Shown: positions 23,081-47,963, counted from the first letter of the stretch. The stretch: DNA of 64,000 nucleotides from a bacterium (GCA_014874355.1 JACWAJ010000066.1:12417-76416), one strand, 5' to 3'. Translations and numbers: made by a program. The notes: a model not told the origin generated them from the letters alone.

Positions 23081-24843
<1,763 letters not shown>

Positions 24844-30852: not shown

Positions 30853-31136
30853 GCCGTACCCTCGGTTTTGTGCCCCAGGTGCTTGCTCCGGCGAGCTTCT
30901 CGCCAGCTCACATAGGTCTCCGGCACCGGGTCTTCGCCGCTGCCACCCCACGGAGCGCAGCGTGCAATCCGGCGAATCGCCAACCACCAACCACGCCTAA
31001 AGCCGTACTTCTGGATGGCGGAGTATCCATACCACGAGCAACTCGGCTCGTATCTACAGCGGCCCAAAATGCTTAGAACCGGCCCCAACGTCATCTGGTA
31101 AGCCCGAATCAATATCAGGCTGATCTTCGCCATCAT
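30849..31136 (-). CDS. yidD: Membrane protein insertion efficiency factor YidD
   Basis: [18 protein letters not shown]...[19 protein letters not shown] signature; ATGA overlap with rnpA. Confidence 0.75.
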
Positions 31137-31531: not shown

Positions 31532-31674
31532 CTCGCGGGTGCAGGTGTCAGGCGCTTGCGTCCCTTGAGACGCCGTGCCTTGAGCACCGCCCGGCCTCCT
31601 GGCGTCGCCATGCGCGTGCGAAACCCGTGGGTCTTGCGCGCGTACTTCTTCTTGGGTTGAAAAGTCCGCTTCAG
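31528..31674 (-). CDS. rpmH: 50S ribosomal protein L34, apparent CTG start
   Basis: Translation (L)[47 protein letters not shown]. There is no in-frame ATG/GTG/TTG after the upstream TAG. GGAGAAG lies 8 nt upstream of CTG. Confidence 0.8.
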
Positions 31675-31902
31675 AGGGTCTTCTCCAATCTAGGTAATCT
31701 CATCCACGACGTGACCGGCCGAACCGGACACAAGACGGCCATGGACCGCTGAACAGTGGCGCAAGTATAGCAATGCGGCCTCCCGATGTCCCATCGGAGG
31801 TCTGCTAGACTCCATTGGTCCGGCGGGAGGTCGAATCGCAACGACTTCCGCTTTCTCCTTCCAGGGTTCTCTCTCGCACCCGCCAGGCTATTTGGATCGA
31901 GG

Positions 31903-31933
31903 TTATCCACTAGTGTTTATACGCTGTGGATAA
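31903..31933. promoter_or_regulatory. Pair of inverted DnaA boxes in the rpmH-dnaA divergent promoter region
   Basis: TTATCCAC (31903-31910) and the perfect consensus TGTGGATAA (31925-31933). Confidence 0.7.
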
Positions 31934-32015
31934 CCTCGGAGAATTCACGAGTGGCGGGCATATCGAGGATCAACGTGCGACTTGTTGACGGCAGCGGGAC
32001 GATGGAAGCCTCCGC

Positions 32016-33500
32016 GTGGTGACTGAAGATTCCACCGGCATGAGATCTGATCTCAGCCCCTTGGCTGTGCCCGATCCACCCGCCGACGAGGCAACGGCCG
32101 AACCGGAGGAGCAATCTCAGGTTGGCTTCGACCCCTCGCAGATATGGCAGGCCGCTCAGGAGGAACTGCGCTTCCAGATCGCCCGCCCAGGCTACGAAGC
32201 GTGGCTTTCGAACACCGTTCTCTTGGAATCTGACGGCAACACCTTCACGATCGGGGTTCCCACCCGCTTGGCCCGGGACTGGGTTATTGAACGCTACGTG
32301 CCCCTCATCAAGGAGACTTTGTCGGGAATGCTGGCGCGTGAGTGCAACGTCATCATCACCGTCGATCCCGCGGCAGCCCCGCCACCCGACGATCCCGCGC
32401 CGATTGCCACGCAAGAGAGTGGTGGCATAGAGAGCACTGATGAGTTCTCGGACGGCACCGCCGGCACGACAACGGACTCCCACCTCAACCCGAATTTTCA
32501 GTTCTCCACTTTTATCGTCGGCAACTCCAGCCGCTTTGCCCACGCCGCCTGCAAGGCGGTAAGCGACGCGCCCGGGAAAGCCTACAACCCGCTGTTTTTG
32601 TATGGAGGAGTGGGTCTCGGCAAGACTCACCTGATGCACGCCATCGGACATGCGGTCCGAGAGAAGAACCGAAGGGCAAAGGTCACCTACGTCAGCTCGG
32701 AGAAATTTATGAACGAGATGATTGCGGCGATCCAGGCAAACCGCACTCATGAGTTTCGAATGCGGTATCGCACCGTTGACGTCCTGCTAATCGACGATAT
32801 TCAGTTCCTTGCAGGCAAGGACCGCACCCAGGAAGAGTTCTTTCACACGTTCAACGCCCTTCACGAGATCCAGAAGCAGATCGTTGTGTCAAGTGACCGC
32901 CCTCCTAAAGAGATCCCCACGGTAGAGGATCGGCTTAGAAGCCGTTTCGAAGGCGGGCTGATGGCAGATATCCAACCGCCCGATTTTGAGACCCGACTAG
33001 CAATTCTTAACTCCAAGCTGGGGTCCCATCGCCGGCTTGTCCCCGAGGAAGTGTGTTCCTTCATTGCTCACAGAATCCACACGAACATCCGCGAGCTTGA
33101 GGGTGCCCTCATTCGCGTCCTGGCCCACGCCTCTATCAACGACCAGCCCGTGACATTGGACGTGGCTCAGCGCATCCTCCAAGACGTGCTCCCAGCCAAC
33201 GAAAGTGCCCTCATCACCATCGAAGCCATCCAGGACACGGTTGCTGCCTACTACGGCACTTCGATTGATGAAATGAAGGGAAAGCGACGGGACAAACATA
33301 TCGTTTTTCCCCGCCAGGTGGCGATGTACCTCATTCGCGACGATATAGAGACCGCACTCACGGTAATTGGCTCAGCGTTTGGTGGTCGCGATCACACAAC
33401 TGTGCTCCATGCTTGCGAGAAGATCAAGGACTTGCTCACAGAAGACACCAAACTCCAGGTTGACGTCCGCAATATCCGTGAACAAATCCAGTCGCGATAG
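32016..33500 (+). CDS. dnaA: Chromosomal replication initiator DnaA
   Basis: Walker A GGVGLGKTHL, sensor motifs, C-terminal DnaA-box-binding HTH. GC ~56%, below the flanks. Confidence 0.95.
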   Translation: MVTEDSTGMRSDLSPLAVPDPPADEATAEPEEQSQVGFDPSQIWQAAQEELRFQIARPGYEAWLSNTVLLESDGNTFTIGVPTRLARDWVIERYVPLIKETLSGMLARECNVIITVDPAAAPPPDDPAPIATQESGGIESTDEFSDGTAGTTTDSHLNPNFQFSTFIVGNSSRFAHAACKAVSDAPGKAYNPLFLYGGVGLGKTHLMHAIGHAVREKNRRAKVTYVSSEKFMNEMIAAIQANRTHEFRMRYRTVDVLLIDDIQFLAGKDRTQEEFFHTFNALHEIQKQIVVSSDRPPKEIPTVEDRLRSRFEGGLMADIQPPDFETRLAILNSKLGSHRRLVPEEVCSFIAHRIHTNIRELEGALIRVLAHASINDQPVTLDVAQRILQDVLPANESALITIEAIQDTVAAYYGTSIDEMKGKRRDKHIVFPRQVAMYLIRDDIETALTVIGSAFGGRDHTTVLHACEKIKDLLTEDTKLQVDVRNIREQIQSR

Positions 33501-33753
33501 ATCGAGGGTAGAACGTGTGGAGAACCTTGCTAGATGCTGTGGAAAGACCTGTGGTCTCTAATCCACTGTGGAGAAGGTCTTTACTAGACCATGGTTGTCC
33601 CCACCCAGCAGCGGCTTGTCCTCAGGCGTCACAATTCCGATCGGGCCTTTATCCCCGCCATCCCCACCACTACTACATATACTCTTTTATATATTCCCTA
33701 ACTCTTCTAGCTTATCTTCTGGGTATAAACCTTAAGTCAAGGACTTTTTCTCA
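33501..33753. other. oriC candidate: cluster of DnaA-box-like 9-mers followed by an AT-rich DNA unwinding element (33671-33745)
   Basis: Near-consensus boxes: TGTGGAAAG (its complement cTTTCCACA), TGTGGAGAA (its complement TTCTCCACA), TTGTCCCCA, TTGTCCTCA, TTATCCCCG. Then ctactacatatactcttttatatattccctaactcttctagcttatcttctgggtataaacctt in a ~68% GC genome. Confidence 0.65.
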
Positions 33754-34872
33754 ATGAAATGCACCGTCAGTCCATCTGCGCTAAGCACCTGCATTGGACT
33801 TGCTGCACGTGCCGTATCGCCTCGTTCTACCCTTCCAGTGTTGAGTAATCTGCTGATAGAGGCCAAGAACGAACAACTCACAATTACGGCCACCAATCTA
33901 GACCTCAGTATTTCTACGAGTGTTGAGGCCACGGTTCTAGAAGAGGGGCGAACCACCATCCCTGCCCGTCTTTTCAGCGACTATGTGGCATCTCTACCAG
34001 AAGTGCCATGTGCTTTGGAATTGGACCCCACAACACAGATCACCAAAATTACGTGTGGCACGCTGCGTACCAACATGCATGGGATTGATGCCGCAGAATT
34101 CCCGCCGCTGGCAGTGCGCCAACCGGATGTTACAGTACAGGTTGGATCTGAAGAACTGGAACGTGCCATTGCTCAGACGGCAATGGCAGCCAGCAGCGAC
34201 GAGGCTTCGCCGGTGCTCACAGGCGTTCTCTTACAGATTGAAGGCACTAGGCTTACTCTGGCTGCCACCGATCGCCACCGGTTGGCAGTGAAGACGCTGG
34301 AGGTGGAGGTTAAGGGTGAGCTTCCCAAGGGTGGTGGAGTGATCGTGCCAGCACGGCATCTAAGCGAGGTTGCGAGGGCAATCAACCCTAGCCGGCCAGT
34401 GGTGGGTATCAGCTTTGCTGAGCAGCGAAACCAGATTTTCTTCACCATAGGTAACGTGGAAATTACATCACGTTTGATCGACGGGAATTATCCGAATTAC
34501 GCTCAGGTTATTCCGAGTCAAGCAACGACAACAGTGAGTTTGGATACCGATGTTCTCTTGCGTAGTGCCAAGACGGCCTCTGTATTAGCTCGCGATGCCG
34601 CCAATCCCGTAAGGCTTCACGTTGCCGACAACATGGTAACCTTGATAGCCAAGACAGCCGAGGTTGGAGATCATGAAGCTCCACTGAACGCGAAAGTTAC
34701 CGGTGACGATGTGAAAGTCGCTTTCAATGCGAAGTACATGCTTGACGCACTTTCCGTACTTGGTTCTGACGAAGTGCAGTTGAGTTTCAACGGTGCGTTG
34801 CAACCCGGTGTCATTCGTCCGGTTGACACCGACGACTACCTGTGCATCATCATGCCGGTGAGGGTTCCCTAG
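33754..34872 (+). CDS. dnaN: DNA polymerase III beta sliding clamp
   Basis: Full-length DnaN (372 aa). GC ~52%, with codon usage distinct from neighbours. Confidence 0.9.
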   Translation: MKCTVSPSALSTCIGLAARAVSPRSTLPVLSNLLIEAKNEQLTITATNLDLSISTSVEATVLEEGRTTIPARLFSDYVASLPEVPCALELDPTTQITKITCGTLRTNMHGIDAAEFPPLAVRQPDVTVQVGSEELERAIAQTAMAASSDEASPVLTGVLLQIEGTRLTLAATDRHRLAVKTLEVEVKGELPKGGGVIVPARHLSEVARAINPSRPVVGISFAEQRNQIFFTIGNVEITSRLIDGNYPNYAQVIPSQATTTVSLDTDVLLRSAKTASVLARDAANPVRLHVADNMVTLIAKTAEVGDHEAPLNAKVTGDDVKVAFNAKYMLDALSVLGSDEVQLSFNGALQPGVIRPVDTDDYLCIIMPVRVP

Positions 34873-34983
34873 CGACGCGCACGCTGAACATTACGCCACC
34901 AATACACCCGCGAACGCCGTGTCCTGGGACCTCTTCAACACCCGAAAGCAAAGTCAGGTCCACGTTGTGCTGGACGGCGGCCT

Positions 34984-35607
34984 TTACAACGGCGGTGGCG
35001 AGGACATGCAGGGACACATGGTCGAGCGAGTGGCCGCACGCGAAAGGACTGACACGAATGCCACCGGAGCGGCCAGGATGAGCGGGCAGAGTGTTGCCAC
35101 CACAAGGACCGGGACGGTCCGGGCGAAGTCGCCGGACACGACCCATGCGGCGATCGCAGTGGCCAGCGTGACGAGCAGGAACCATAGGGCATAGCGATCA
35201 GCCAACCGGACGACACGTGCGATCAGCGATCGCAGTTCCCGGCGGGCGCGCCCGGTTGCCCACGCCTCGAGGGTTCGGCCCGTGGCGAGCATTACGCTGA
35301 TGACCGCGCCGGCCAACTCCTCGTGGACGGCCAAAGCTCCGCACAGGGCCAGGAGGGCGATCACGTCAACGCCCAGACGACCGTGCCGTAGGCTGCTGAC
35401 CATCCACCAAGCCGCCACCCCTGCCCCAAGGAGGGTGGCCAGTGACCACGCCACGGTGCCGGCTGGATGGTCTCCGACGAGATACGCGATGCATCCGCTT
35501 GCCAACCCTGCCACCGTGGTGCCCAGGAAGATGCCCTCCCAGGGGAGATCACGCCTCATTCTGTCATCGCTGTTGTCAGTCATGGCGCGTATCGTCAGTG
35601 TCTCCAC
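34984..35607 (-). pseudogene. Degenerate remnant of a P1B-type heavy-metal ATPase (TM helices only; A-domain and P/N-domains missing)
   Basis: …ELAGAVISVMLATGRTLEAWATGRARRELRSL (TM4 signature) is directly followed by a TM6-like CPx segment (TLCPLILAAPVA) with no actuator domain. The ORF stops before any DKTGT motif. Confidence 0.5.
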
Positions 35608-35623
35608 TGGCGTTGTGCCAGGG

Positions 35624-37384
35624 TCAAAGGTTCACTTTCTCCCGCCTTTTTGAGGCATAAGCCCTTTGCAATGGCGTGGGCAGGAAGAACACCAGCCCAA
35701 ACGTCAGCGACCACACGGTGACGTTGTAGATGAGAGAGTATTTAAAGGCATAGGTGAAGTTGTCTGCGAGCCGGGTTGTGGTCTCCTTGGAGATCACATC
35801 GTGAATATTGGCGTAGGCCTTGAGCAACTCGGGAGAGGCTTTAGGTGGCGGCAGCAACGTCTGTTGAAGGGCCACACAGCTGTTGGGTGAGGCGGAAGGG
35901 TCGTTCGCGGCGGCGGTGTCGTCGAAGCAGTAGCTAAAGCCGGTGTCAATGGCTGAGGTAATGGAAGCTGTGGCTCCTGCCGTAGTCAGTTGCTGTTGGA
36001 ACGCCGGCGAACGTTGTGCAGAAACAGTGGGTGCGTAGGTGCCGAGTAGCCCGAAGTAGACGACGCCTACGATTGCCACCCCGAGTGCTCCCGCAACCTG
36101 CTGACCGGTGGTGAGCACACCCGATGCCGAGCCGGCGTGGTCATGGTGGACGCCGGCAAGGATGATGTTGGCGAGCGGTGCGATGACGAAGCCCATTCCG
36201 AGGCCACCCATTGCAAGCGAAGGAATGAGATCGTACCCGCGGAAGGTGTTGTCTGCGCTGGTCGCAGTGAGGGTTTCCCAGAGGACAAACATTCCAAGGG
36301 TGATCGATGCCGATCCAATCAAGAGAATTAGCTTGCCCAGCCGGGGATAAAGCCGGATAGACAGGGTCGATCCGAGCGCGGCGGTGATGGCGAACGGAAT
36401 CGTTGCAACTCCAGCTTGCAACGGTGAAAATCCATGGCCGAGTTGTAAAAACAGTGATAGAGTGAGAAAGAATGCGGGAATACCGGACAGGAAGATGCAG
36501 ATAACCGCAAGGCCCACCAGGAACGACCGGTTGCGGAAAAGCGCGGGCTCGACGAGAGGACAGTTACTGGTTTTCGCACGCCAATGGTTGTACTGGTCAA
36601 AAATGGCGAATACGACGAGTGACAAGGCCATGGATGTAAACGTCCACCACGGCCACCCTAAGCTCCGACCCTCGACGAGGGGGTACACGAGCAGAAACAG
36701 GGCAAGCGTTGCCAGCAGTGCTCCGGGGATGTCGAGTCGGGTTGCACGTGGTGCCCTGGACTCATCCAGGGCCAAGATCGCGGCAACCACTGCTCCGATT
36801 CCAAGCGGGACATTGACGAGAAATATCGGTCGCCAGCCGAGGCCGAGGATATTGCCTTGTATGAGAATGCCACCGATAAGTGGCCCGCTGATGGCGGCTA
36901 TGGCAACAACTCCGCCATAGATCCCAAACGCTTTGGTTCGGTCGTGCGGGGCGAAGTTGACCTGCAGGACGGAGATGACCTGCGGGTACATCAGAGCGGC
37001 CATGAGGCCTTGGAATACGCGGGCGCCCACCAGAAAACTACCCGAACCAGCGAGGCCGCAGGCCACGGAGGCAAGTGTGAATCCACCGACACCGATGATG
37101 AACAGACGTTTACGACCGTAGATATCGCCGAGCCGCCCCCCGGTGATCAGGGTGACGGCGTAAGCAAGTTGATAACCGGCCACGACCCACTCGATCTGCG
37201 AGAAAGTTGCATTGATTTCAGTGTGGATCGAGGGAATCGCTACGTTCACGATCGAGATGTCCAGCAGGATCATGAACGAAGCTGAGAGAACAGTCGCCAG
37301 AGCGGTCCAGCGGCGCGACGTACTGGTGTGTGGACCGGGTGGATCGACAAATGTCGTTGAAGGGCTGAGACTCTCGCTGCTCAA
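35624..37384 (-). CDS. MFS transporter, DHA2 (14-TMS EmrB/QacA-like) drug:H+ antiporter family
   Basis: MILLDISIVNVAIPSI, GRLGDIYGRKR motif, 14 hydrophobic segments. Confidence 0.85.
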   Translation of the reverse strand: MSSESLSPSTTFVDPPGPHTSTSRRWTALATVLSASFMILLDISIVNVAIPSIHTEINATFSQIEWVVAGYQLAYAVTLITGGRLGDIYGRKRLFIIGVGGFTLASVACGLAGSGSFLVGARVFQGLMAALMYPQVISVLQVNFAPHDRTKAFGIYGGVVAIAAISGPLIGGILIQGNILGLGWRPIFLVNVPLGIGAVVAAILALDESRAPRATRLDIPGALLATLALFLLVYPLVEGRSLGWPWWTFTSMALSLVVFAIFDQYNHWRAKTSNCPLVEPALFRNRSFLVGLAVICIFLSGIPAFFLTLSLFLQLGHGFSPLQAGVATIPFAITAALGSTLSIRLYPRLGKLILLIGSASITLGMFVLWETLTATSADNTFRGYDLIPSLAMGGLGMGFVIAPLANIILAGVHHDHAGSASGVLTTGQQVAGALGVAIVGVVYFGLLGTYAPTVSAQRSPAFQQQLTTAGATASITSAIDTGFSYCFDDTAAANDPSASPNSCVALQQTLLPPPKASPELLKAYANIHDVISKETTTRLADNFTYAFKYSLIYNVTVWSLTFGLVFFLPTPLQRAYASKRREKVNL

Positions 37385-37686
37385 ACCGGAGACTTCCCCT
37401 CAAGCGGGATGAAGCGAAATCTCTGAACCACCTTGGCGCCCAGACGTTCATTGATAGCGTCGATCACGCGAGGGGAGTCCATGTGGATCTGGTGAGCCAG
37501 AGCGGAGTTGGTGGAAGCAACCACCAGCGTACCGCGTTCCAGCCGCTCGGCACGGCAGAACGGAAGCATGGCCGGACCCATCACGACAGCAAATACTTCG
37601 CGAATCTGTACGTCTCGTACCTGCTGGCGGATTCCCATGGCACGGAGCGTGCGATCGAGGAGGTTGGAAACGGGCTCTTCTTCCAC
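37381..37686 (-). CDS. DUF721-domain protein (DciA-like, typical recF-neighbour in actinobacteria)
   Basis: 101-aa ORF immediately after recF, overlapping the MFS start. Its size and position match the Rv0004-type DUF721 proteins. Confidence 0.6.
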   Translation of the reverse strand: MEEEPVSNLLDRTLRAMGIRQQVRDVQIREVFAVVMGPAMLPFCRAERLERGTLVVASTNSALAHQIHMDSPRVIDAINERLGAKVVQRFRFIPLEGKSPV

Positions 37687-37701
37687 TGGAATGATCTTAT
37701 T

Positions 37702-38850
37702 TCACCTCACCGGCCGAATCGATCCAGCATCCACTTCGAAGAAATGAATTTCGGTACCCCCAAGACCGTGCAGTGCGGCCGGTTCTGCCGTGGTCACAAG
37801 TACTTGAATGCCAGATTCCGCCACGGTCGCAAGCAGGGACTGGCGCCGAGTTTCATCGAGTTCTGATAGAACGTCGTCGAGGATCAGTACTGGTGAGACG
37901 TCCGCCGTGGCACGGATGTGAGCCACCTCGGCAAGCTTGAGCGCAAGCACGATGCTTCTCTGCTGACCCTGCGATGCGGCTGTGCGTGCGGGGCGACCAG
38001 CAAGTAGGACTTCGACGTCGTCGCGGTGAGGGCCCACAAGGCTGATTCCGCGGGCCACCTCTTCGGCGCGGCGCGCCTGAAGCCTTGTGCTGATGGCAGA
38101 TCGGGCCTGGTCAACATCCCCGGTCGTGGGGTCGAAGACCGCACCACCGGCAACGTAGTTCAGGCCGAGGGCTTCACCGTCCCCACCGAGTTGGACCAGT
38201 GCCGGCACCGCCCAATGCAGGAGGTCTTGCACGAGTCGAGCGCGTGCGACGCGAACACGGGCCCCTGCATCAATGAACTCAGCCTCGAATGATGCCAGCG
38301 CAGACAGGCTGCCGCCGCCATCGCGCAGTTGTCGCATCAGGGCATTGCGCTGCTCAAGTGCGCGCCGGTACCGGTGAAGCTCGGCCATTGCACGAGGATC
38401 GAGCTGGCTGAGCACCACGTCGAGGAGGCGACGCCGACCCTCGGGGCCGGCTTTGACGAGGAGGAGGTCGTCCGGCCAGAAGAGAACCACCGGGCAAATG
38501 CCCAGCAAGCTCCGAGCCGGACGCGGCTTGCCGTTGACGGTGGCCGAGCGGCCGACATGGCGTGTGGCGGTGTCGTATGTGAAGCGCACGCCGAGATCGG
38601 CAGGCCCGTCAAGTCGGTGCACATGGGCTTCAACCAAGCAGGCCGTGCTTCCCCAGCGGAAAAGGTCGGCACTACTTGCGGCCCGTGGCGACCGGCTCAA
38701 GGTGAGTGTGGCCACGGCCTCGAGCAGGTTGGTCTTTCCCTGGGCGTTGCGTCCGCCCATGACGTTCAGCCCGGGACCGAACTCGACAGTCGTGTCGGCG
38801 TAGTTGCGGAACTCGTAGAGACGAAGGCTTTCGATTCGGCAGGCGTTCAC
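37702..38850 (-). CDS. recF: DNA replication and repair protein RecF
   Basis: Walker A GGRNAQGKTNLLEA, signature and Walker B LILDDVLSELD. Confidence 0.9.
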   Translation of the reverse strand: MNACRIESLRLYEFRNYADTTVEFGPGLNVMGGRNAQGKTNLLEAVATLTLSRSPRAASSADLFRWGSTACLVEAHVHRLDGPADLGVRFTYDTATRHVGRSATVNGKPRPARSLLGICPVVLFWPDDLLLVKAGPEGRRRLLDVVLSQLDPRAMAELHRYRRALEQRNALMRQLRDGGGSLSALASFEAEFIDAGARVRVARARLVQDLLHWAVPALVQLGGDGEALGLNYVAGGAVFDPTTGDVDQARSAISTRLQARRAEEVARGISLVGPHRDDVEVLLAGRPARTAASQGQQRSIVLALKLAEVAHIRATADVSPVLILDDVLSELDETRRQSLLATVAESGIQVLVTTAEPAALHGLGGTEIHFFEVDAGSIRPVR

Positions 38851-40017
38851 TTAAGAGCGTGGGACGATACCGCCGCGGGCCATGGACACGATCAGCTCGG
38901 CGATGTCGGCGGTTGCTTCGGGACGTGCCACCCGCATCACGGCCTCGCGCAATCGTGCAAGTCCAGGCGATCCAGGGCGCGAGAACTCAGCCACGGTATC
39001 GACAAGTTGGTCGATGTCAGGAACGTAGCGGCCGGCACCAGTGTCAACCACCCAATCGACGTTGCCCCGCTCCTGCCCGTGCAGGTACCAGGTGAGTAGC
39101 AAGGGGGTCTGGCAGCAGAGCGCTTCTGCGATGGTTCCCGGCCCCGCCTTGGTGGCGATGACGTCGGCGGTGCGGACCCATTCGGCCATGTTGTTGACAA
39201 AGCCGTGGACCGCAACCGGCGATCCACGGTGGTCGCACAGTCCGGCAAGGCGCTTCTGGGCACTGCGGTTGCGGCCACATATGACCACCAGCTCGATCGG
39301 AAGGCTAGCCTTCGCCAGGGCCCGGGCGCGGCGGGCGATCCCTCCCGAGCCGTCGGCGCCGCCGCAGAGGAGAACCACGAAGCCGTCGGGGGCGACGCCC
39401 AATTTGAGCCGCAGCGCGGAACGCTGGTCGGGCGTTAGCGGTGGCCGGGTGAAGCTGACGTCCACGGGAAGCCCGAATGGAAAGCAGCGTTCTCCAGGAA
39501 TGCCGACCCGGCGTGCCCGGTCGAGCCCACCGGGCGATGGTGTGACGACGGCGTCGACATCCCGGCAGGCCCATGCCGCGTGGACGTCAACCAGGTCGGT
39601 GATGACGGTGATGAGCGGTACGCGTGTGACACCGGGCCGCCTCACGGCTCTGGCGGCAACGTGGTTCAGCAGCGGATGGAACGACACGACGGCGGCGGGT
39701 TGCAGCCGCTGGCAGAGGCGGGCCAACCCGGATTCCACCGACCTGAGAACGGTCGACTTGAGCAAGCTGACCGCGGGTTTGGAGTTCGTGGAGTAGTACA
39801 ACGCCCCCCACATCCAGCTCGCGTGCTGGATTACGGTCCCGTAGAGATCGGTGGTGTGACGAAGCCACGGGGAGGCCGTTCCGGCGAAGGGATCAACAAT
39901 GTGGATGTCGAACTCGCCTGGGTGGTCAACCTCGAACTGAGAGCGGACAGCGTTGGCGCTTGCGCGGTGACCTCCGCCAGTGTCGGCGATGAGAAACAGA
40001 AGTGGTTGCGCAGTCAT
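38851..40017 (-). CDS. GT28-family glycosyltransferase (MGDG synthase/UgtP-like, MurG fold)
   Basis: N-terminal LFLIADTGGGHRASANAV motif. Its stop abuts the recF start codon with no gap. Confidence 0.7.
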   Translation of the reverse strand: MTAQPLLFLIADTGGGHRASANAVRSQFEVDHPGEFDIHIVDPFAGTASPWLRHTTDLYGTVIQHASWMWGALYYSTNSKPAVSLLKSTVLRSVESGLARLCQRLQPAAVVSFHPLLNHVAARAVRRPGVTRVPLITVITDLVDVHAAWACRDVDAVVTPSPGGLDRARRVGIPGERCFPFGLPVDVSFTRPPLTPDQRSALRLKLGVAPDGFVVLLCGGADGSGGIARRARALAKASLPIELVVICGRNRSAQKRLAGLCDHRGSPVAVHGFVNNMAEWVRTADVIATKAGPGTIAEALCCQTPLLLTWYLHGQERGNVDWVVDTGAGRYVPDIDQLVDTVAEFSRPGSPGLARLREAVMRVARPEATADIAELIVSMARGGIVPRS

Positions 40018-41741
40018 GTGGAGAAGGCTATCCCAACGGCTTCTGCGCGGCGGGTGAGGGTGGTGAGTAACGCGGGTGCACTGCCATCGGCATTCTCGAT
40101 CCAAGCCTGAACGCTGCCGCCACCCCCCACAGCGAGGTAGGCGATCTGACGTCCGTCGGGAGATACTGCAGCGCTGGCGAGATCGGAAGGAACCGGTCCG
40201 CCAGGCAGCACTACCAGCCCCCTGCCCAGCGTGAGGCGGGCCAGATGGGAGTCGCCGGCGTCCGGGCGTTTGGCAACCACCAGGGTTGCGTCGTCAGCGA
40301 ACCCAACTGGTGTCGCGTCGGCGTCGAGCAGCATGGGTGCCGCCGCGGAGCCTCCAAGTGAGACCACCCAAGTGCCGTCGAGGCGACTGTCCGCCGTGCT
40401 GTCGCGGCGTAATGCGAGGAGACGTCCATTGGGCGACAGCACTGGATTGGTGGCTGAGCCGGCGATTCCGGGAGCGGGGTAGCGTGCGGCGAGCGTAGGA
40501 CTTGCGAGATCGACGTGTGGGAGCTGTCCGGCGGCTGCGACGGGCAGCACGATCAAACTGCTGTCGGCATTCCAGACCGCCCCACCTACGAGAGGGTCGC
40601 CCGGGGGCAGGAGGATGGTGCTGCCATCGGAGTGATGGATGGCGATTCGCCCGGCTTGGCCGTAGGCGAGGTCGCCGCTGTGGGACCATGAGGGATAGCC
40701 GGCGCCGCTCACGTCGAAGGTATCACGGCCGGTGATGACATCGATGACGCGCAGTTTCTGTGGCACCGAGGCATCGAGGGGTTGCTGCACGACGGCAACA
40801 TAGCGGCCACCCGGGGACACTGCCACTGCGCCAAGCGCCACCTTCTCGGTGCTCACGTCGAGAACTCGAACTGTCCGGACAGGGTCGCCTTTTTGCGCAG
40901 GTGTCGTACTCATCATCAGCACCTCGGTGGCGGGGCCACCGTCGGGGCCGACCAGGACCGCCAGGTGGCGGCTGTTGCCCAACTGGCCGGTGGTGAAGTC
41001 AAAGTGGCGAGCCTGCGCCAGAGGCTGTCCGAAAGCGTCGACGGCGCGGGTCGAGACATTGAGGGTGTATGCGCGATTGGGGAGCAACATCTGATTGGGC
41101 AACAACACAAGACGGTTGAGGTAGAGGGTGTTGCGAACCACCTTCAAGTTCGCGACAGGTGGGGTTAGCGAGATCGCCCCGGCGGTGTTGGTGGCATCCA
41201 TCGGACGGTCGAACTCGACTGCGATCGGGGCATCGACGGCAATGCCGGTAGAGCCGTTGGTAGGGGTTGTGGCCGAGATCGTTGGGGCCGCTTGGGAGGT
41301 GAGATCCCAATGGTGGTCGAGGACGTTGACCACGCCCGCGGTGTCTCGCACGCCAGCGTCGATACTGAAACCGTACTTGGTGCTGGGGGCAAAGACGGCA
41401 CCGGGGTGTTTGAATACGAATCCGGGGCGATCTGTGAGCCATTCGACGCGACACGGTGCGTCCGCCCTGGCGCCAAAGGCAGCGTCGACGTCGCAATGGG
41501 CCAGTGCCGGACTGACGTGAAAGCGCCCACGGACTGAGTTTTGGTCCAGCGTGCGATTAAAGACGACGGTGATTGGCTGGTTGGCGGCTACAGAAGTCGA
41601 GCCCCGGTTGGGTTCGATCGAGATGATCTGAGGCGGGGCAGAGAAACACCCGGATAGCGTCGCCACCAATACTGCCGCGAAAGCCAGTTGCAAGGCTGTA
41701 CATCCGACAACCGAGGCTAAGGTTGTCGCTTTTCGTGTCAT
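40014..41741 (-). CDS. Lipoprotein with bacterial Ig-like domains and a C-terminal TolB-like beta-propeller
   Basis: Lipobox LSGCFS; repeated SbsA/Big-like ~90-aa segments; C-terminal repeats (SPDGRQIAY, SPNGRLLAL). Confidence 0.55.
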   Translation of the reverse strand: MTRKATTLASVVGCTALQLAFAAVLVATLSGCFSAPPQIISIEPNRGSTSVAANQPITVVFNRTLDQNSVRGRFHVSPALAHCDVDAAFGARADAPCRVEWLTDRPGFVFKHPGAVFAPSTKYGFSIDAGVRDTAGVVNVLDHHWDLTSQAAPTISATTPTNGSTGIAVDAPIAVEFDRPMDATNTAGAISLTPPVANLKVVRNTLYLNRLVLLPNQMLLPNRAYTLNVSTRAVDAFGQPLAQARHFDFTTGQLGNSRHLAVLVGPDGGPATEVLMMSTTPAQKGDPVRTVRVLDVSTEKVALGAVAVSPGGRYVAVVQQPLDASVPQKLRVIDVITGRDTFDVSGAGYPSWSHSGDLAYGQAGRIAIHHSDGSTILLPPGDPLVGGAVWNADSSLIVLPVAAAGQLPHVDLASPTLAARYPAPGIAGSATNPVLSPNGRLLALRRDSTADSRLDGTWVVSLGGSAAAPMLLDADATPVGFADDATLVVAKRPDAGDSHLARLTLGRGLVVLPGGPVPSDLASAAVSPDGRQIAYLAVGGGGSVQAWIENADGSAPALLTTLTRRAEAVGIAFST

Positions 41742-41761
41742 GCCACCTCTCGACCGCGCGA

Positions 41762-42991
41762 TTACAGTGGCTTGGCCAGCTCCAGGTCGACGTCGATCCT
41801 GTTGACGACTTCTGTGCCGCTGCGCACCTCGATATGCGAAGCACGTTCTGCCGCCAGCTTGCCGACCGTGGCCAGTTCTGTCTGCGGCTTGCGTGCCGTC
41901 TCGGTGTACGCGCCCAGCACCGCGCCATCGTGGAGCAGGATGACGCCCATCTCGGTGCTATGGGTGATCACAACTGACCCGGTGACCTTCTTTTCGGTCA
42001 GGTACTCGATGAGGGCATCGAAATTGACGAAGCGACCAAGCAACCCTTTGAACATCTGGGTTGCACCGAAGAGTTGTCCCAACGAGGCGACCAGGTCTCC
42101 GTTGATGTCCACCACGTCAAGGTGGCCGGCGCCGGCCTCCATCTGGTGCCGGACCAATTGGAACGCTTCCGCGCCCTGCGTGACGCGGCCTTCTGAGTCC
42201 GCCAGCGCTTCAATCAGTTCGCCTGCTTGAAAGACCAGCGTCCCCACGAAGCCTTCGCCCTTGAGGTAGACGTAGCCCGTGTGGTTGTCGCCCTTGAGGG
42301 TGCGTAGCAGCTTGGGAAAGTCGACGAACGCGCTCTTCAAGCCCTTGTAGGTTGTCTTGCCGTCGGGTAAGGGGTACATCGTTTCTAGGGCTGGCGATTC
42401 CGTAGCAGCAGGCTCTGGCGCCTTGGCCCACGAATCGTCAGGTTGGGTCTCGGGCGCGGCTTCCGTTTGCCAGGAAGCGTAGCTTGGAGCCTCAACAGCA
42501 CCACCCTGGTCGGTAGCCCAGTCGGCATACGGGGGGGTGACAGGGATGTCGACGGCCGCTACGGCCGGTTCGGGCGCGGGGTAGTCGACCGCCGCCTCGA
42601 TGGGAGCGGATTCCCAGGTGGTGGCTTCCGCCTCGGCCACCGCTTCGGGCTCGGTTGGCGGCGTCACCACCACCCCGCCGCGTTGCTCGGCGAGGGCGAT
42701 GAGGTCGGCCGGTGAAACCTTGATGGTTTCCTCGGCCGGGAGTTTGGCTCGCGGATCGAATTGGAAAACGCCTTCGGTGAAGGCAAGTGCGTTGACCACG
42801 ACCTCCTCACCCTGGTCGGTTGCGTCCGAAGCGTGGAAAAGGTGTCCGAAGAGGAAGTAGAGGGAGCACGTTGTGGAGCCGGTTTCCAGTGTGAGGGTAC
42901 CGGTGGCTCGCTCTGACTGCAGCGATTGAAGGAGCGATGCCAGGGGGACTTCTTGGAGCGAACCCTGAGTCTGCAAGGGGGGACTCCTCAT
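41762..42991 (-). CDS. DUF4388 (PatA-N/PATAN-like) domain protein with Pro/Glu/Ala-rich linker
   Basis: N-terminal LQEVPLASLLQSLQSERATGTLTL, a second DUF4388-like segment, and a C-terminal roadblock-like fold. Start at ATG 42991. Confidence 0.5.
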   Translation of the reverse strand: MRSPPLQTQGSLQEVPLASLLQSLQSERATGTLTLETGSTTCSLYFLFGHLFHASDATDQGEEVVVNALAFTEGVFQFDPRAKLPAEETIKVSPADLIALAEQRGGVVVTPPTEPEAVAEAEATTWESAPIEAAVDYPAPEPAVAAVDIPVTPPYADWATDQGGAVEAPSYASWQTEAAPETQPDDSWAKAPEPAATESPALETMYPLPDGKTTYKGLKSAFVDFPKLLRTLKGDNHTGYVYLKGEGFVGTLVFQAGELIEALADSEGRVTQGAEAFQLVRHQMEAGAGHLDVVDINGDLVASLGQLFGATQMFKGLLGRFVNFDALIEYLTEKKVTGSVVITHSTEMGVILLHDGAVLGAYTETARKPQTELATVGKLAAERASHIEVRSGTEVVNRIDVDLELAKPL

Positions 42992-43159
42992 ATGTGGGTG
43001 TCCGCGGCGGTGCCACGGCAACTTTGGAAAACTTGGCCGAGATGGCCCCTCAGAGAGGCCGTATAGTAGCAACGAAGCCCCTGCCATGCGTTGAGCGTTA
43101 CCTCCATCGCGTGGTTCGGCCGCTGGCGGTGGAGGGACGTAAGCCTTAGAGTCGGGCGC

Positions 43160-43813
43160 GTGACCGAGCATTCCGAGCCGAACGGCGAAGCAGCACCAGA
43201 CGACATCCGGCAGCTACCCACCTACGAGGAGTTCGCATCGAACTTGCTGGAGTCGCTCGACGCCGCAGCCCTGTTGCTTGAGGACGTGCGCCATGAGTAC
43301 GAACCAGGGATCGGGGAACGTCGCTTCGAGTGCACCGTGCGCCTCCCCTCGCCAGAGCCGATGTCTCGTTATCACGTGCATGTGGGGTTCGCGTGGGATG
43401 CGCTGCTGACGTATCTGGGCGCCTACGGTCCGGGCGCGGACTGCGAGGCCTATCACGACGACTCCGAAGCCGCGGATTGTCCCCACCAGCATCTCCCTCC
43501 CCAGGCACTCGTTGAAGTGGAAGCGGAGTTCATCCTGGGCGATGGCGGGTACGAGTTGCAAGAACTTGGCGAACTCTCGACCTGGGTCGAAACCGCCCAG
43601 CGCGTGCTGAGCAAGGCGTTTCCGGGAGACGACAAGCCATCCGTGCATGTGGGTCTTGCGGCGCTGGTCAACACCGTACTGGTCGAGAACTTCACAGCTG
43701 AGCACTCGTGGCTGATCGACTTCGAGAACCAGCCCGAACTGCGGGGGATCGGAGAGCAGATCCAGGCCGCGCTGAAGATCATTCCGGCACTGGCGGATCG
43801 TTTGCCTATTTAA
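43160..43813 (+). CDS. Hypothetical protein
   Basis: 217-aa ORF with no recognisable motif; GTG start chosen. Confidence 0.35.
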   Translation: MTEHSEPNGEAAPDDIRQLPTYEEFASNLLESLDAAALLLEDVRHEYEPGIGERRFECTVRLPSPEPMSRYHVHVGFAWDALLTYLGAYGPGADCEAYHDDSEAADCPHQHLPPQALVEVEAEFILGDGGYELQELGELSTWVETAQRVLSKAFPGDDKPSVHVGLAALVNTVLVENFTAEHSWLIDFENQPELRGIGEQIQAALKIIPALADRLPI

Positions 43814-43892
43814 ACGGGGAGGGCCACCCTCCCGCGGCGCCCCTCGTGCACCGGCTCGCATACGCTCGCTTTCACGGGGAGGGCCACCCTCC
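43814..43892. terminator. Two copies of a 19-nt hairpin-forming repeat (ACGGGGAGGGCCACCCTCC), 60 bp apart, each directly after the stop of one of two convergent genes
   Basis: Copies at 43814 and 43874; GGGAGGG/CCCTCCC stem. Confidence 0.5.
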
Positions 43893-44606
43893 TCTGATCC
43901 TGGCGGCCGGTTCCAGGGGGTCGACGCCGTCTTCCCTGTAGCGCGCGCAGCGTTGCGTAGCCAACGCCACGGCCTGGGGGGCTATGTCGGCTCCGATAAA
44001 AGAGCACTGGTGCCGCAGTGCGGCGATGGCGGCTGAACCGCTACCTACGAACGGGTCACACACTGTCATGCCCGCCTCAACGCTGCCCTCTAGCATGCGC
44101 GTAAAGAGTGCGACGGGCTTCTGGGTGGGGTAGGCGCCGCGGTGGACCCGCTTGATGGCCCAGACGTCGGGCAGGTCTCGGCGGCTCAACTTGCGGCGGC
44201 CCTTGCTGGCGAAGACGACCAGTTCGTGACGGCGCCGGAAGTAGTGTCCCATTCCCAGGTTGACCTTGTCCCACACGATGACGTTCTTGACCTCGAACAC
44301 CTCACGCAGGAGCGCTCCCAGTGTAAGCAACGAGAAACTGTCGAACATGACATAAACATGCCGGTCGTCACGGAGAACTCGATGGCATTCTCGCAAGAAT
44401 GCCAGGAATGTTTCCGGGTCGTCGTGGAACTCACGGAACCACCGCTCGTTGTTGGGGTCCTGGTAGCGACCGACTATGCGGCCGTGGCCGAACCCCATAT
44501 GCTGATTCATGCCGGAATACGCCGGATCGGTGGTGATTACGTCGACGCTGGCGTCGGGCAGAGAACTCAGGAACGTCAGGCAGTCGACTTGCTCGATACG
44601 GACCAC
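43872..44606 (-). CDS. Beta-class amino-DNA methyltransferase (N6-adenine or N4-cytosine)
   Basis: Motif IV-like TDPAY and motif I DPFVGSGS in beta-class order. GTG start just after the stop of the upstream small ORF. Confidence 0.75.
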   Translation of the reverse strand: MVRIEQVDCLTFLSSLPDASVDVITTDPAYSGMNQHMGFGHGRIVGRYQDPNNERWFREFHDDPETFLAFLRECHRVLRDDRHVYVMFDSFSLLTLGALLREVFEVKNVIVWDKVNLGMGHYFRRRHELVVFASKGRRKLSRRDLPDVWAIKRVHRGAYPTQKPVALFTRMLEGSVEAGMTVCDPFVGSGSAAIAALRHQCSFIGADIAPQAVALATQRCARYREDGVDPLEPAARIRGGWPSP

Positions 44607-44610
44607 GGAA

Positions 44611-45030
44611 CTAAGCGTCGGAGGTGGGGGTGTCACCGTGATCGTCGGGAGACTCTGGCCCGCCGGGGCCGAACAGACCCATGCCGCGAAGTAGGTTGGT
44701 GAGTGCCTCGGGACCGCCGACGTCATCCTGGATGCGATCGAACACTCGCGCCATGAGTTCTTGGAGTTGGGGGTCGCCGGCAAGTTTCTCTTGTAGGCCG
44801 CCCATCTGCGACATGAGATCTTTGATGGCGGCCTCCTGGGCCACCTGCATCAATACAGGCTGGGATGCCGCCGCGATAACCATCTGCGCCTGCTGGCGTA
44901 GCATTTCGAACCCCTGACAGGCGATACATGTCCCTTCGTGGCGGCAGCGGCAGAGTTTTGTCTTGAGGCTATCGATCTCGCGGTGGAGACCGGAGAGGTC
45001 AACGCCACTGTTGCCGGGATCTTCGTCCAT
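44611..45030 (-). CDS. Hypothetical small protein with Cys cluster (CRCRH…CIACQGF, putative Zn ribbon)
   Basis: 139-aa ORF co-directional with, and abutting, the methyltransferase gene. Confidence 0.4.
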   Translation of the reverse strand: MDEDPGNSGVDLSGLHREIDSLKTKLCRCRHEGTCIACQGFEMLRQQAQMVIAAASQPVLMQVAQEAAIKDLMSQMGGLQEKLAGDPQLQELMARVFDRIQDDVGGPEALTNLLRGMGLFGPGGPESPDDHGDTPTSDA

Positions 45031-45251
45031 GTGTAGATCGTACCCGTGGAACGCAAGTTACAGTCTCCCGGGTCGGGGGGCCGTGCCACCGATGTGCCAC
45101 GGCATGGTGATAGGCTATAGTTCAGATCGACGGGAGCCCCAGGGCCGCGCTTAGGTTTGGGTGATCCGAAGCCTCGGTAAGTTCCGCGCTTTTGAGCCGT
45201 TCCAAAGTGCGTGCCCCAGCATCCCGGCATTGTTGATAAGGCGTTCGGCGG

Positions 45252-47963
45252 TTGGTTCCGCCGCGCCACGAGGTTGCATCCAAGCTGATAGCCCCGGACC
45301 TCGCGCTCGACCGGCTGCATCTCATCGTGCCCGATGACAGTGACGCCATGGTCGTGCTCACCACCCTCGCCGACGGGTCTGCTGAAACCAAGGATCCGCG
45401 TGCTGTTTTTGCCGCGCGCCTTGGAGAGGTCGGCCATCTCACCGCGTCGTTCAACGACGAGGACACTCCCCAGATCCTGCTTTTGCTACCCGATCTGACG
45501 TTGCAGTGCGTTCCGATGCCGGCGCCCGAGCAGGGACGTGACCATCTGGGGCTGCGCGTTGTGGCTATTCGCCCGGCGGTCAATCACCCAGACGGAGCCA
45601 AGCTGCTAACCGTCACCGCCGAGGAAGCGGTCGTCACCGCCGGCAACAGCGTTCAGAGCGACACATTCCGGCTACTCGACTGGAGAACCGCGTCGAGAAT
45701 GGCCGCCGGGTCAAGCGAACTTTATGCGGCTCTCAAGCTGGTGGACTCGCTGGAGACTGCCGAGAAGAGCCGGGCTGCGACGCAGCGTACGCGATTCTCT
45801 GGTGCGCGTGAGTTCTGGCGATGCAAGGCATGTCGGGCGCTGTGGCGCCCCGCCGATCACGAGCACTGCCCTTCCTGCGGTCGCGTATTTGGCGAGACGG
45901 ATTGGCGTCTTCACGAGGTTGGCAAGGTCGAGTTCTCCATCCCCGATAACGAAAAGATAACCCTCACCCCGGATGCCGCAGTTCTCGTGGAACCCGAGGA
46001 CGAGGTCAACTTCGTGGGCAGGGTTTCGCGAATCGACATCAAACGTGGCATTGTCGAGGTCACATGCAAGACCCGTGACGCGGTCGGCACCGAGGGCAGT
46101 ATCACCCCGTCGTTCAACCGGGCCCTCTACCAGGCCAAGCGTTCGGTCCTGGCGGCCATTGCCACCAAGGACTTCGGCGTGGGTCTGCTCGCGCAACTCA
46201 TGGCATGTCCCGACACCGTTTCGGTGCCGGAGTACGTGCCTGAAACCGGCGACGATTCGTGGCTCACGAGCGGGATGATCGCCAATCCCCCACAGGATCG
46301 AGCCGTAAGCATCGTCTCGAACCTGCGCGCCGGACAGGCCGCGTTTATCCAAGGTCCGCCGGGTACCGGCAAGACCACCGTCATTGTCGAGGCGATCAAG
46401 CGCCGTCTGGCAAAGAATCCTGAGGACCGCATTCTTGTCACCTCGCACTCCAATCTTGCCGTGGACAATGCATTGGAGCGGCTCGCCGGCACCCCTGGAA
46501 TGCGCGCCGTACGGGTTGCCCGGGCTGAGCGCGTTCACGCCGCGGTGGACCAGTTCCGCTGCGATGACGAAGACGACCCACGGTTGGTAACCGCCAACTG
46601 CTACTTCGCCACCTGCGCCACCGCGGCCACGTCGGCAATCACCGACATGAACTTCGAATTGGTGATCCTCGACGAGGCCAACAAGGCTCGCGTCGACGAG
46701 GCGCTACCGGCGTTGCGGTTGGGCCGGGCCCTGGCCCTGGTGGGTGACCACAGACAGCTGCCTCCGGTCGAGGACGACGCCCTGTATGGCATCGTGGAGA
46801 GCGATCCCGCACTAGAGGAACTGGTCAACCGATCTCTCTTCGAGCAGGCTTGGGAGGGAGGACTGCCGGAACAGGCACGCTGCTTGCTCACCATCCAGCA
46901 CCGCATGCATCCGCAGATTTCGTCCTACGTAAGCCGGGCGTCGTATGGGGGCCAGCTCGTCGATGCCGCCGAGGTGGAGGCCTACGATTTTGTGACGCGG
47001 GTACCTTTCCCCGTGGCCCTCCACTTCGTCGACACGGAGGGGATGCGGGGTGGACGCGAGCGTCGCGGTCCGGGTGGCGCACTGCGAAACGAGACGGAGG
47101 TTCGCGTCGCAGCCCAGGTGGTACGGCTGCTGGACGAGCGGGCCCCCAAGGAAATGACCATGGCGGTCATCGCCATGTATGCCGAGCAGGTCGAGCGCCT
47201 GCGTCAAGCTCTGGGGCGGCGGCGGTTCAAGCGGTCGGTCAAGATCGACACGGTCGATTCTTTCGAAGGCCGCGAAGAGGACATCGTGGTCATCTCCCTG
47301 GTGCGGTCCAACGAGCGTGGCCGGATCGGATTCCTTCGGGTTCCCAACCGGCTCAACGTCGCGATCTCGCGCGCCAAACGTCTGGTGGCTTGCATCGGCG
47401 ACAGTGCGACACTGCGCTCCGGCGAGGAATCGATGTACGGCGTGCTGGTCGAGGCGGCACGCCAGTACGGAGGGTGGTTGCCAGCACAGAGTCTGGTTCA
47501 ACCCAAGCGTCGGCGTGGTCAGGGACCGCCAAGAGAGGGGGTCGCCGCGGAGGGAGAGGTGCTCACGGACGGCGAAGCGCTTGCCAAGAAGCGCCGTCGC
47601 CGTCGGGGCCGTGGCGGGGCTCGCCCTCCGGTTGCCCCGCAGCTCGACGACAACGGCAACCCGATCCCCGAGGCCGTTCCAGCGCCTCAGCCGGTGCAGT
47701 TGGGCCCGGACGGCCAGCCGATCCCGCGCCGTCGTCGCCGCCGCCGTCGCCGTCGCCGTCAGGCTCCGGAGATCGGAGCCGCGGGTGAGGTGGCTGAGGT
47801 TGGGCCCAACGTGGTGCCGTCGCCCGGCGCTGACGTACACCACTTCGCTCCCTTGGAGAGCATCAGCAGCTACGTGCCGCGGCGGCGCCCGGGGTGGATC
47901 GAACGTGGACCGAAAGACAACGCCGAGCCGGTTGACGCTTCACAGGCAACAGCCGGAGAGTAG
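45252..47963 (+). CDS. SF1 Upf1/DNA2-like helicase with ~330-aa N-terminal domain containing a Zn ribbon and a C-terminal poly-Arg disordered tail
   Basis: Walker A GPPGTGKTT, motif II VILDEANKA, III VGDHRQLPPV, V/VI VDSFEGREEDIVVISLVRSN…ISRAKR. CxxC…CxxC (CKACRALWRPADHEHCPSC). Tail PRRRRRRRRRRRQ. Start uncertain (TTG 45252 or ATG 45345). Confidence 0.85.
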   Translation: MVPPRHEVASKLIAPDLALDRLHLIVPDDSDAMVVLTTLADGSAETKDPRAVFAARLGEVGHLTASFNDEDTPQILLLLPDLTLQCVPMPAPEQGRDHLGLRVVAIRPAVNHPDGAKLLTVTAEEAVVTAGNSVQSDTFRLLDWRTASRMAAGSSELYAALKLVDSLETAEKSRAATQRTRFSGAREFWRCKACRALWRPADHEHCPSCGRVFGETDWRLHEVGKVEFSIPDNEKITLTPDAAVLVEPEDEVNFVGRVSRIDIKRGIVEVTCKTRDAVGTEGSITPSFNRALYQAKRSVLAAIATKDFGVGLLAQLMACPDTVSVPEYVPETGDDSWLTSGMIANPPQDRAVSIVSNLRAGQAAFIQGPPGTGKTTVIVEAIKRRLAKNPEDRILVTSHSNLAVDNALERLAGTPGMRAVRVARAERVHAAVDQFRCDDEDDPRLVTANCYFATCATAATSAITDMNFELVILDEANKARVDEALPALRLGRALALVGDHRQLPPVEDDALYGIVESDPALEELVNRSLFEQAWEGGLPEQARCLLTIQHRMHPQISSYVSRASYGGQLVDAAEVEAYDFVTRVPFPVALHFVDTEGMRGGRERRGPGGALRNETEVRVAAQVVRLLDERAPKEMTMAVIAMYAEQVERLRQALGRRRFKRSVKIDTVDSFEGREEDIVVISLVRSNERGRIGFLRVPNRLNVAISRAKRLVACIGDSATLRSGEESMYGVLVEAARQYGGWLPAQSLVQPKRRRGQGPPREGVAAEGEVLTDGEALAKKRRRRRGRGGARPPVAPQLDDNGNPIPEAVPAPQPVQLGPDGQPIPRRRRRRRRRRRQAPEIGAAGEVAEVGPNVVPSPGADVHHFAPLESISSYVPRRRPGWIERGPKDNAEPVDASQATAGE

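Follow-up and report, generated by a model that had tools for sequence, protein, structure and literature searches.

recF and dciA converge on dnaN behind a gene for a putative glycolipid synthase: a lineage-specific variant of the bacterial origin cluster in Candidatus Dormibacterota

The present analysis concerns a stretch of bacterial DNA of 64,000 nucleotides (nt; GCA_014874355.1 JACWAJ010000066.1:12417-76416), hereafter the window, in which recF and dciA (DUF721) are placed on the strand opposite to dnaA and dnaN and directly behind a gene of the GT28 glycosyltransferase family, predicted to encode a glycolipid synthase. Listing of open reading frames (ORFs) and family searches against Pfam and NCBIfam revealed an array of six minus-strand genes converging on plus-strand dnaA-dnaN, and the trio GT28-recF-dciA within it was found again in every related genome compared. 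We consider it probable that this layout goes back to an ancestral inversion followed by the neutral capture of recF-dciA behind the GT28 gene, with co-transcription and translational coupling of the genes thus joined. The components are all ordinary members of known families (RecF, DciA, MGD1-type GT28 and DHA2 MFS); what is new is their arrangement, a lineage-specific form of the classical origin cluster, and no description of it was found in limited literature searches. The genes of the locus are as follows:

32016-33500, plus strand: dnaA, with Pfam DnaA_N, Bac_DnaA and Bac_DnaA_C; the real start is possibly downstream of the GTG at 32016
33754-34872, plus strand: dnaN (beta clamp), with three Pfam DNA_pol3_beta domains; convergent with the array
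34984-35607, minus strand: decayed fragment of a P1B-ATPase gene, Pfam E1-E2_ATPase at 21 bits, under the cutoff
35624-37384, minus strand: DHA2-family MFS efflux permease, last gene of the array, TIGR00711 and Pfam MFS_1; TTG start
37381-37686, minus strand: dciA (DUF721), domain-only form of 101 amino acids (aa), PF05258
37702-38850, minus strand: recF, TIGR00611; GTG start
38851-40017, minus strand: MGD1-type GT28 glycosyltransferase (putative monoglycosyl-diacylglycerol synthase), Pfam MGDG_synth and Glyco_tran_28_C
40014-41741, minus strand: lipoprotein with two Ig-like Big_5 domains and a C-terminal PD40/TolB-like propeller, Pfam Big_5 (twice) and PD40
41762-42991, minus strand: DUF4388/PatA_N (PATAN) repeat protein, first gene of the array, PF14332

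RecF reached 294.4 bits against TIGR00611 (equivalog cutoff 172; residues 6-354), and its translation makes readable a Walker A motif (GRNAQGKT), a signature (SQGQQRS) and a Walker B motif (LILDDV; PVLILDDVLSELD), which we take to be the motifs of an SMC-like ATPase. The DUF721 domain of DciA (PF05258) scored 61.6 bits, compared with a gathering score of 24, across residues 5-92 of 101, and a weak match was obtained to PDB 7ykm ('DciA DUF721 domain'; E 0.0017). Domain-only ('group 4') DciA forms predominate in Chloroflexi and are experimentally untested (bioRxiv 10.1101/2022.01.24.477630); the protein considered here is a putative replicative-helicase operator and probably essential.

The GT28 product (388 aa; gene call identical in independent assemblies) has the architecture of the MGD1-type synthases of monogalactosyldiacylglycerol (MGDG), with PF06925 at 67.9 bits, PF04101 at 41.4 bits and an N-terminal DTGGGHRAS motif, and its residues 5-373 align over the full length with residues 7-377 of Arabidopsis MGD1 (PDB 4wyi, E 4.3e-61). 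Against the diglucosyl-diacylglycerol synthase UgtP/YpfP (NF010135, equivalog cutoff 500) it gained 122.9 bits, and a processive glucosyltransferase structure (9wde) was matched with E 1e-16 only; judged by these comparisons, the protein lies much nearer to plant MGD1 than to the processive glucosyltransferases. In domain architecture, motif and full-length similarity it thus resembles the MGD1-type enzymes of Chloroflexi and plants (PMC3276260, PDB 4wyi), and it is a putative synthase of predicted, not established, sugar specificity. The alignment fits the known closeness of Chloroflexi and plant MGDG synthases (PMC3276260); one among the Chloroflexi homologues tested in that study showed true MGDG synthetic activity. 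No report of an MGD homologue in an operon with recF was found in limited literature searches.

The arrangement was compared with that in 13 relatives, namely L001-L011, in which the window proteins were searched by tblastn, and L086 and L087, which are megabase contigs with independent gene calls; counts of 14 genomes given below include the window. RecF of L001-L011 is 52-63% identical to that of the window, and these sequences, with the exception of L003, are labelled as Candidatus Dormibacterota, Dormibacteria or Chloroflexi/Chloroflexota, whereas RecF matches from any other lineage did not exceed 41% identity. By this measure the window organism, an uncultured soil bacterium, is to be placed in Candidatus Dormibacterota and not among actinobacteria, and the actinobacterial frame of reference chosen in a preliminary description of this DNA was abandoned, since the closest genomes are those of Candidatus Dormibacterota. 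As to L003 (DATMMX010000024.1), its record bears the title Candidatus Angelobacter (NCBI: Acidobacteriota), and its label or binning looks wrong; its DnaA is 72% identical to that of the window and its gene order is Dormibacteria-specific.

The order GT28, recF, dciA was present in all 13 relatives, followed, wherever contigs extend, by convergent dnaN and dnaA and then by rnpA/yidD/yidC/jag, and the DUF4388 and lipoprotein genes stand upstream in all relatives whose contig gets there. Pairwise identity of RecF among the 14 genomes ranges between 49 and 92% and is mostly about 55%, which makes the layout an old one, spread across deep branches of the class; its recurrence in 13/13 relatives at about 45% RecF difference is far beyond chance. 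The inversion of recF-DUF721 relative to dnaN, as noticed in the preliminary description, was therefore borne out both by gene calls and family searches in the window and by the relatives, and the synteny comparison that it had called for confirmed the arrangement as real while removing the suggestion that it might be recent.

Around this core the neighbourhood changes. No gene lies between dciA and dnaN in most relatives, and the two stop codons are 4-99 nt apart there (mostly 4-52 nt). L009 has the MFS gene next to dnaN; elsewhere dciA and dnaN are separated by an ABC transporter gene (L001, L002), by a fragment of an isochorismatase gene (L087) or, in the window, by the ATPase fragment. The MFS gene was found only in the window, L001 and L009, overlapping dciA by 4 nt (-4) in all three. 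The lipoprotein and GT28 genes likewise overlap (-4) in the window, L004, L006, L007, L086 and L087, but in L003, L005, L010 and L011 an opposite-strand GT4 glycosyltransferase gene and a HAD hydrolase gene stand between them (~6600-8750), and GT28 therefore needs its own promoter in these four genomes. Clustering of the four by RecF identity suggests a single insertion. Upstream of DUF4388 the content is also variable, with a response regulator and small genes in L086 and L087. The trio GT28-recF-dciA, on the other hand, was uninterrupted in 14/14 genomes, so the invariant unit is the trio and not the six-gene array. The single operon proposed earlier holds as a tight co-directional array in the window; it is not a fixed entity, given the GT4 and HAD interruption.

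Some observations may be added on the same neighbourhoods. The GT4 and HAD pair represents a second sugar-related module beside the glycolipid synthase. The regulator of L086 (6088-6801) and L087 (6111-6809) is of the OmpR type and divergent from the DUF4388/PATAN gene, and is absent from this place in the window. The stop codons of dciA and dnaN are only 4-6 nt apart in some genomes (L086 12626-12631; 6 nt each in L004 and L010), which leaves no room for a terminator, so that the 3' ends of the transcripts must overlap.

Outside Dormibacteria, 69 recF loci exhibited either the canonical dnaA-dnaN-recF order, or divergent dnaN and recF, or, in a minority (e.g. L012, L015-L017), a recF next to which no dnaN was detected. 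Not one of these 69 loci has a GT28 homologue within 10 kb, and the GT28-recF linkage therefore appears to have arisen once. The best 120 matches to the GT28 protein were all at least 60% identical and every taxon-named one belonged to Dormibacterota.

The packing of the array in the window, read in the direction of the genes, is as follows:

DUF4388 to lipoprotein: gap of +20 nt
lipoprotein to GT28: -4 nt, ATGA overlap
GT28 to recF: 0 nt, TAA and then GTG, in the same reading frame
recF to dciA: gap of +15 nt
dciA to MFS: -4 nt, TTGA overlap

The start of GT28 was set at ATG 40017, and not at TTG 40104 of the longest ORF, because of the overlap with the lipoprotein stop, and the GTG of recF is the sole possible in-frame start upstream of Walker A in the window. 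The tight packing reported earlier and the direct contact between the GT28 stop and the recF start were hence both confirmed. Co-direction with overlaps or gaps of few nt, kept across relatives, is the spacing expected of an operon. The abutment had been considered unusual in itself, which did not hold: overlaps of -4 or -1 nt account for 12 of the 28 co-directional neighbour pairs (~43%) in the gene calls of L086 and L087 taken together, and they are the commonest prokaryotic gene spacing (PMC10666635). The GT28/recF junction thus has the ordinary look of an operon in these genomes, and what is distinctive is the identity of the joined genes and the duration of their joining, not the tight packing.

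Across the relatives this junction follows a consistent pattern. The GT28 stop overlaps the recF start (GTGA or ATGA; -4 or -1 nt) in 11 of 13, compared with the abutting TAAGTG of the window, and in most genomes no other canonical start precedes the conserved RecF core. The extension of RecF N-terminal to that core varies from 0 to 19 aa and is unconserved; the recF start therefore follows the GT28 stop and not the RecF core. Further downstream, dciA comes directly after recF in 13/13 relatives, with spacings across genomes of -4, -1, 0 or +5 to +15 nt. Overlaps of -4 or -1 nt are associated with tight coupling by termination and reinitiation, which is nearly abolished at ~20 nt (PMC10666635, PMC6728339). 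The known coupled pairs of this kind (ATGA/GTGA, -4 nt; PMC6728339, PMC10666635) are matched by the junctions of the Big_5 lipoprotein gene with GT28, of GT28 with recF in the relatives, and of dciA with MFS; they differ from the present case in being enriched for subunits of one complex, whereas no complex is known to contain both a glycolipid synthase and RecF.

At its upstream end the array borders on the following features:

42992-43090: divergent intergenic region between the DUF4388 start and the next plus-strand gene
43091-43813, plus strand: conserved gene for a protein of 240 aa, divergent from the array; no Pfam family; called on the same strand in L086 and L087

The product of the latter gene is 58-67% identical in relatives (tblastn), and the gene stays near DUF4388 across the class. 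A minus-strand ORF at 43214-43861, examined as a further upstream member of the array, was rejected as an antisense artefact, with 37-48% identity as against 58-67% for the plus-strand frame; the better conservation of the latter means that DUF4388 heads the array, as had been proposed. Its start is either ATG 42991 or TTG 42976, the TTG being preceded by GGAG at 8 nt. A sequence search of PDB with the DUF4388 protein gave no meaningful match. The lipoprotein carries a signal peptide and an LSGC lipobox, and the MFS pump scored 234.4 bits against TIGR00711 with a subfamily cutoff of 230.2.

Signals for expression were sought along the minus strand of 34700-45700. No sigma-70-like promoter was found with an E. 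coli-type consensus, which may not suit this phylum and leaves the scan low-powered; terminator-like hairpins occurred in the same interval at the chance rate only. Accordingly, the claim that recF-dciA forms the promoter-distal part of a co-directional array was upheld, no sigma-70-like promoter or credible terminator being found inside it. The divergent region 42992-43090 is the likeliest site of the array promoter, although the sigma-70 consensus had no match there. Before the GTG of the window recF no Shine-Dalgarno-like sequence was seen; in several relatives GAGG or GGAG lies 8-12 nt before the recF start (by eye). By inspection, no conserved motif was present across relatives in the last 120 nt of GT28, and folding of 120 nt of RNA around the GT28/recF junction revealed no structure common to the window and seven relatives, with z-scores between -2.8 and +1.5 (window +1.49, less structured than shuffled sequence). 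A coupling element that depends on RNA structure is thus not supported by the folding.

Taken together, these data are consistent with the following course of events. In an ancestor of Dormibacteria the recF-dciA pair would have been inverted relative to dnaA-dnaN and would have landed directly behind the MGD1-type GT28 gene. Since then recF-dciA has apparently had no expression signals of its own, and is most likely transcribed from the promoter or promoters of GT28; in the window, a single six-gene transcript DUF4388-lipoprotein-GT28-recF-dciA-MFS would arise, probably from a promoter upstream of DUF4388. Ribosomes that end translation of GT28 would restart at the recF start, and termination-reinitiation might likewise take place from recF to dciA and from dciA to MFS. 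The trio would never have been separated because recF-dciA lacks signals of its own, and its detachment would cost the cell RecF as well as DciA, which is probably essential. A biochemical link between glycolipid synthesis and RecF/DciA is not needed to explain such retention.

Several points weigh against this interpretation. The relatives were chosen by similarity to the RecF and GT28 of the window, and remoter Dormibacterota without the linkage may have escaped. In L007 a gap of 46 nt separates GT28 and recF, resulting from a tandem duplication of ~50 nt (L007 9840-9945), with the GT28 stop in the first duplicate and the ATGA of recF in the second. In the recF of L009 (3880-3910) the stretch from the upstream stop to the core lacks a canonical in-frame start, which may be due to an indel or sequencing error in the metagenome-assembled genome or to a non-canonical start. 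Given L007 and L009, strict coupling is not universal. The argument for co-transcription and coupling is furthermore one of spacing, and in the window the +15 nt between recF and dciA is near the range in which reinitiation coupling weakens (PMC10666635). A non-consensus promoter may lie inside the 3' part of GT28, and an unbroken trio at ~50% RecF divergence in a rearranging region could equally mean a selected functional link.

The former of these last two possibilities, that recF-dciA is expressed independently from an unrecognised promoter in the 3' part of GT28 and the overlap is mere compaction, seems to us unlikely, albeit deserving of consideration. In E. coli, recF is transcribed from promoters within dnaN, and the consensus used in our scan was of E. 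coli type, perhaps unfit for this phylum; the gap tolerated by L007 and the Shine-Dalgarno-like sequences before recF in several relatives would allow for separate initiation. These arguments are countered by the empty promoter scan, by the want of a conserved motif in the end of GT28, and by the window recF itself, where a GTG right after TAA, with no Shine-Dalgarno-like sequence, favours reinitiation. Less likely still is a functional co-regulation, in which the cell would need the dosage of RecF and DciA tied to membrane-glycolipid or envelope synthesis; in a possible variant, helicase loading and fork repair would scale with growth or UDP-sugar supply, loosely as with UgtP, a GT28 enzyme by which cell division is linked to UDP-glucose in Bacillus subtilis. 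Moonlighting glycosyltransferases in cell-cycle control are indeed known (UgtP and OpgH; PMC3723540), the trio has remained unbroken in 14 genomes at ~55% RecF identity with changing neighbours, and the stop/start overlap was kept in 11/13 relatives despite variable RecF N-terminal extensions. The linkage did not, however, recur independently in any of the 69 outside loci, dependence on upstream expression signals suffices for retention, and overlaps of -4 or -1 nt are the norm in these genomes; moreover, the junction showed neither a domain fusion nor a shared motif nor a conserved RNA structure, and the analogy with UgtP is a family resemblance only, the protein being nearer to plant MGD1. 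Most doubtful in this direction is the far-reaching proposal that DciA and RecF would have been under obligatory translational control of the glycolipid synthase throughout the history of the class, linking glycolipid or UDP-sugar status stoichiometrically to replication initiation or restart, possibly through direct contact, at the membrane close to oriC, of the GT28 protein with RecF, DciA or DnaB.

A recent inversion in this genome, with its breakpoint at the ATPase remnant, as suggested in the preliminary description, is refuted by the synteny. It is true that a decayed gene sits exactly between dnaN and the array, with a local GC content of 0.676 that exceeds the 0.55-0.58 of adjoining sequence. 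The fragment comprises 207 codons; in the alignment with PDB 7qbz (Cd/Zn P1B ATPase), its residues 69-129 correspond to 90-150 of that protein, and its residues 155-194 to 308-347. Two transmembrane (TM) pieces are kept, the actuator has been deleted (~160 residues between the pieces) and everything beyond residue 347 is gone, leaving the full domain set of a P1B-ATPase (TM, actuator, phosphorylation DKTGT, nucleotide-binding) incomplete. No homologue of it was detected in L001-L011 by tblastn, and nothing similar occurs among the gene calls of L086 and L087; it appears to be a remnant specific to the window and, as it lacks a counterpart in relatives, is probably what is left of a lineage-specific insertion. 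The orientation of the array is nevertheless the same in 13/13 relatives, in which the MFS gene (L009) or dciA (most others) meets dnaN directly, and a repeat search of the window found no insertion sequence (IS) elements or long inverted repeats flanking the segment, only short matches at chance level. The probability of an artefact, i.e. a chimeric join at 34873-35623 or ORFs called on the wrong strand, is practically nil. Such errors might be feared in view of the metagenome source and of the high GC, which yields long spurious ORFs, one of which was encountered (43214-43861, minus). Contigs were built separately for the runs SRR12217121, SRR12217122 and SRR12217123 and compared with the window, and five of them tile 30313-41634 at 99.97-100% identity, four being 100% identical and the fifth having one mismatch in 3586 nt. 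Three cross dnaN, the ATPase remnant and the MFS gene, with the dnaN junction identical in three per-run assemblies, and two cross the lipoprotein gene, GT28 and recF, one of these continuing through dciA. Significant family matches on the strand given were obtained for all array genes, and the order is repeated in the relatives. The assembly error that had been feared at 34873-35623 is thus excluded, contigs of three runs spanning the region.

To place ancestral inversion and capture among known systems, the locus was compared with the canonical cluster rnpA-rpmH/dnaA-dnaN-recF-(DUF721/dciA)-gyrB-gyrA of Actinobacteria, Firmicutes and many others (PMC5720831). The two have in common the presence of dnaA, dnaN, recF and dciA, the position of dciA right after recF and beside oriC, and the rnpA/yidD/yidC/jag genes beyond dnaA (in the window 29111-31531, minus strand, left of dnaA). 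They differ in that recF-dciA of the window runs towards dnaN from the other strand, that the gene before recF is that of the glycolipid synthase and not dnaN, and that gyrB and gyrA are missing nearby; as to gyrB, family searches found none within ~10 kb on either side of the array, in line with the earlier remark that it is not adjacent. A further difference holds if the dnaA-dnaN spacer is oriC: the rightward replication fork would then meet the array head-on. Location of recF-dciA in the dnaN operon beside oriC is a known class of dciA context, according to PMC5720831, which cites Brezellec for it; with a pair that is opposite to and convergent with dnaN, the window falls outside that class as there described, and its dciA context is a derived variant of it.

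In E. coli, where recF is part of the operon dnaA-dnaN-recF, its expression relies on the genes before it. The window recF is similar in having no free-standing upstream region and in being distal behind a larger gene to which it is, in function, loosely related or unrelated, but the upstream partner is GT28 instead of dnaN, and internal promoters, known in the E. coli dnaN, were not found here by the consensus scan. Divergent dnaN and recF, as in the Chloroflexota-like lineages Dehalococcoidia, Tepidiformaceae and Anaerolineaceae (L030, L036, L041, L052, L054), share with the window a canonical dnaN-recF order broken by near-origin inversion; there, however, recF has its own upstream region and no GT28 beside it, whereas the window recF converges on dnaN and stands behind GT28.

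As to the origin itself, the dnaA-dnaN spacer (33501-33753) contains several DnaA-box-like motifs TGTGGA(G/A)A and an AT-rich stretch resembling an unwinding element (~33660-33750); its GC content of 0.496 is the lowest of the region, and the minimum of the cumulative GC skew lies near 34000. Upstream of dnaA, one perfect DnaA box and one with a single mismatch are found at 31903-31933. Most likely oriC is the dnaA-dnaN spacer, and it is due to this placement that the array counts as origin-proximal and head-on to the rightward fork.

Several features elsewhere in the window deserve mention. Two exact copies of a hairpin-forming 19-nt sequence, ACGGGGAGGGCCACCCTCC, are situated 60 nt apart (43814-43832 and 43874-43892), precisely where two convergent genes face each other with their 3' ends, and may be a paired bidirectional terminator. 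A CcrM-like N6/N4 DNA methyltransferase gene is located near the origin (43872-44783, minus strand; PF01555, E 4e-26), and N6_N4 methyltransferases are also near in L086 and L087, at other positions and on the opposite strand. The genes parA-parB (23093-24843, plus strand) are directed towards the origin, and at 57208-59579 (plus strand) the gene for an NHL-repeat propeller protein precedes that for a multihaem cytochrome (Paired_CXXCH, MtrC/MtrF-like domain). Scanning the entire window against Rfam and for tRNAs returned no matches.

The layout described here rearranges a gene cluster that ranks among the most conserved of bacteria; it defines the clade and is usable as a synapomorphy and synteny marker. 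Interpreted as we propose, it would be a tidy case of operon capture after a near-oriC inversion, which has set ~8 kb of head-on genes, one of them probably essential, right beside the putative origin, and a reminder that an unrelated upstream gene can drive recF and dciA. A functional linkage, if true, would suggest that, in a phylum without cultured members, membrane-glycolipid synthesis is tied to helicase loading or to fork repair, and an obligatory coupling, if true, would amount to a previously undescribed circuit coupling membrane and replication.

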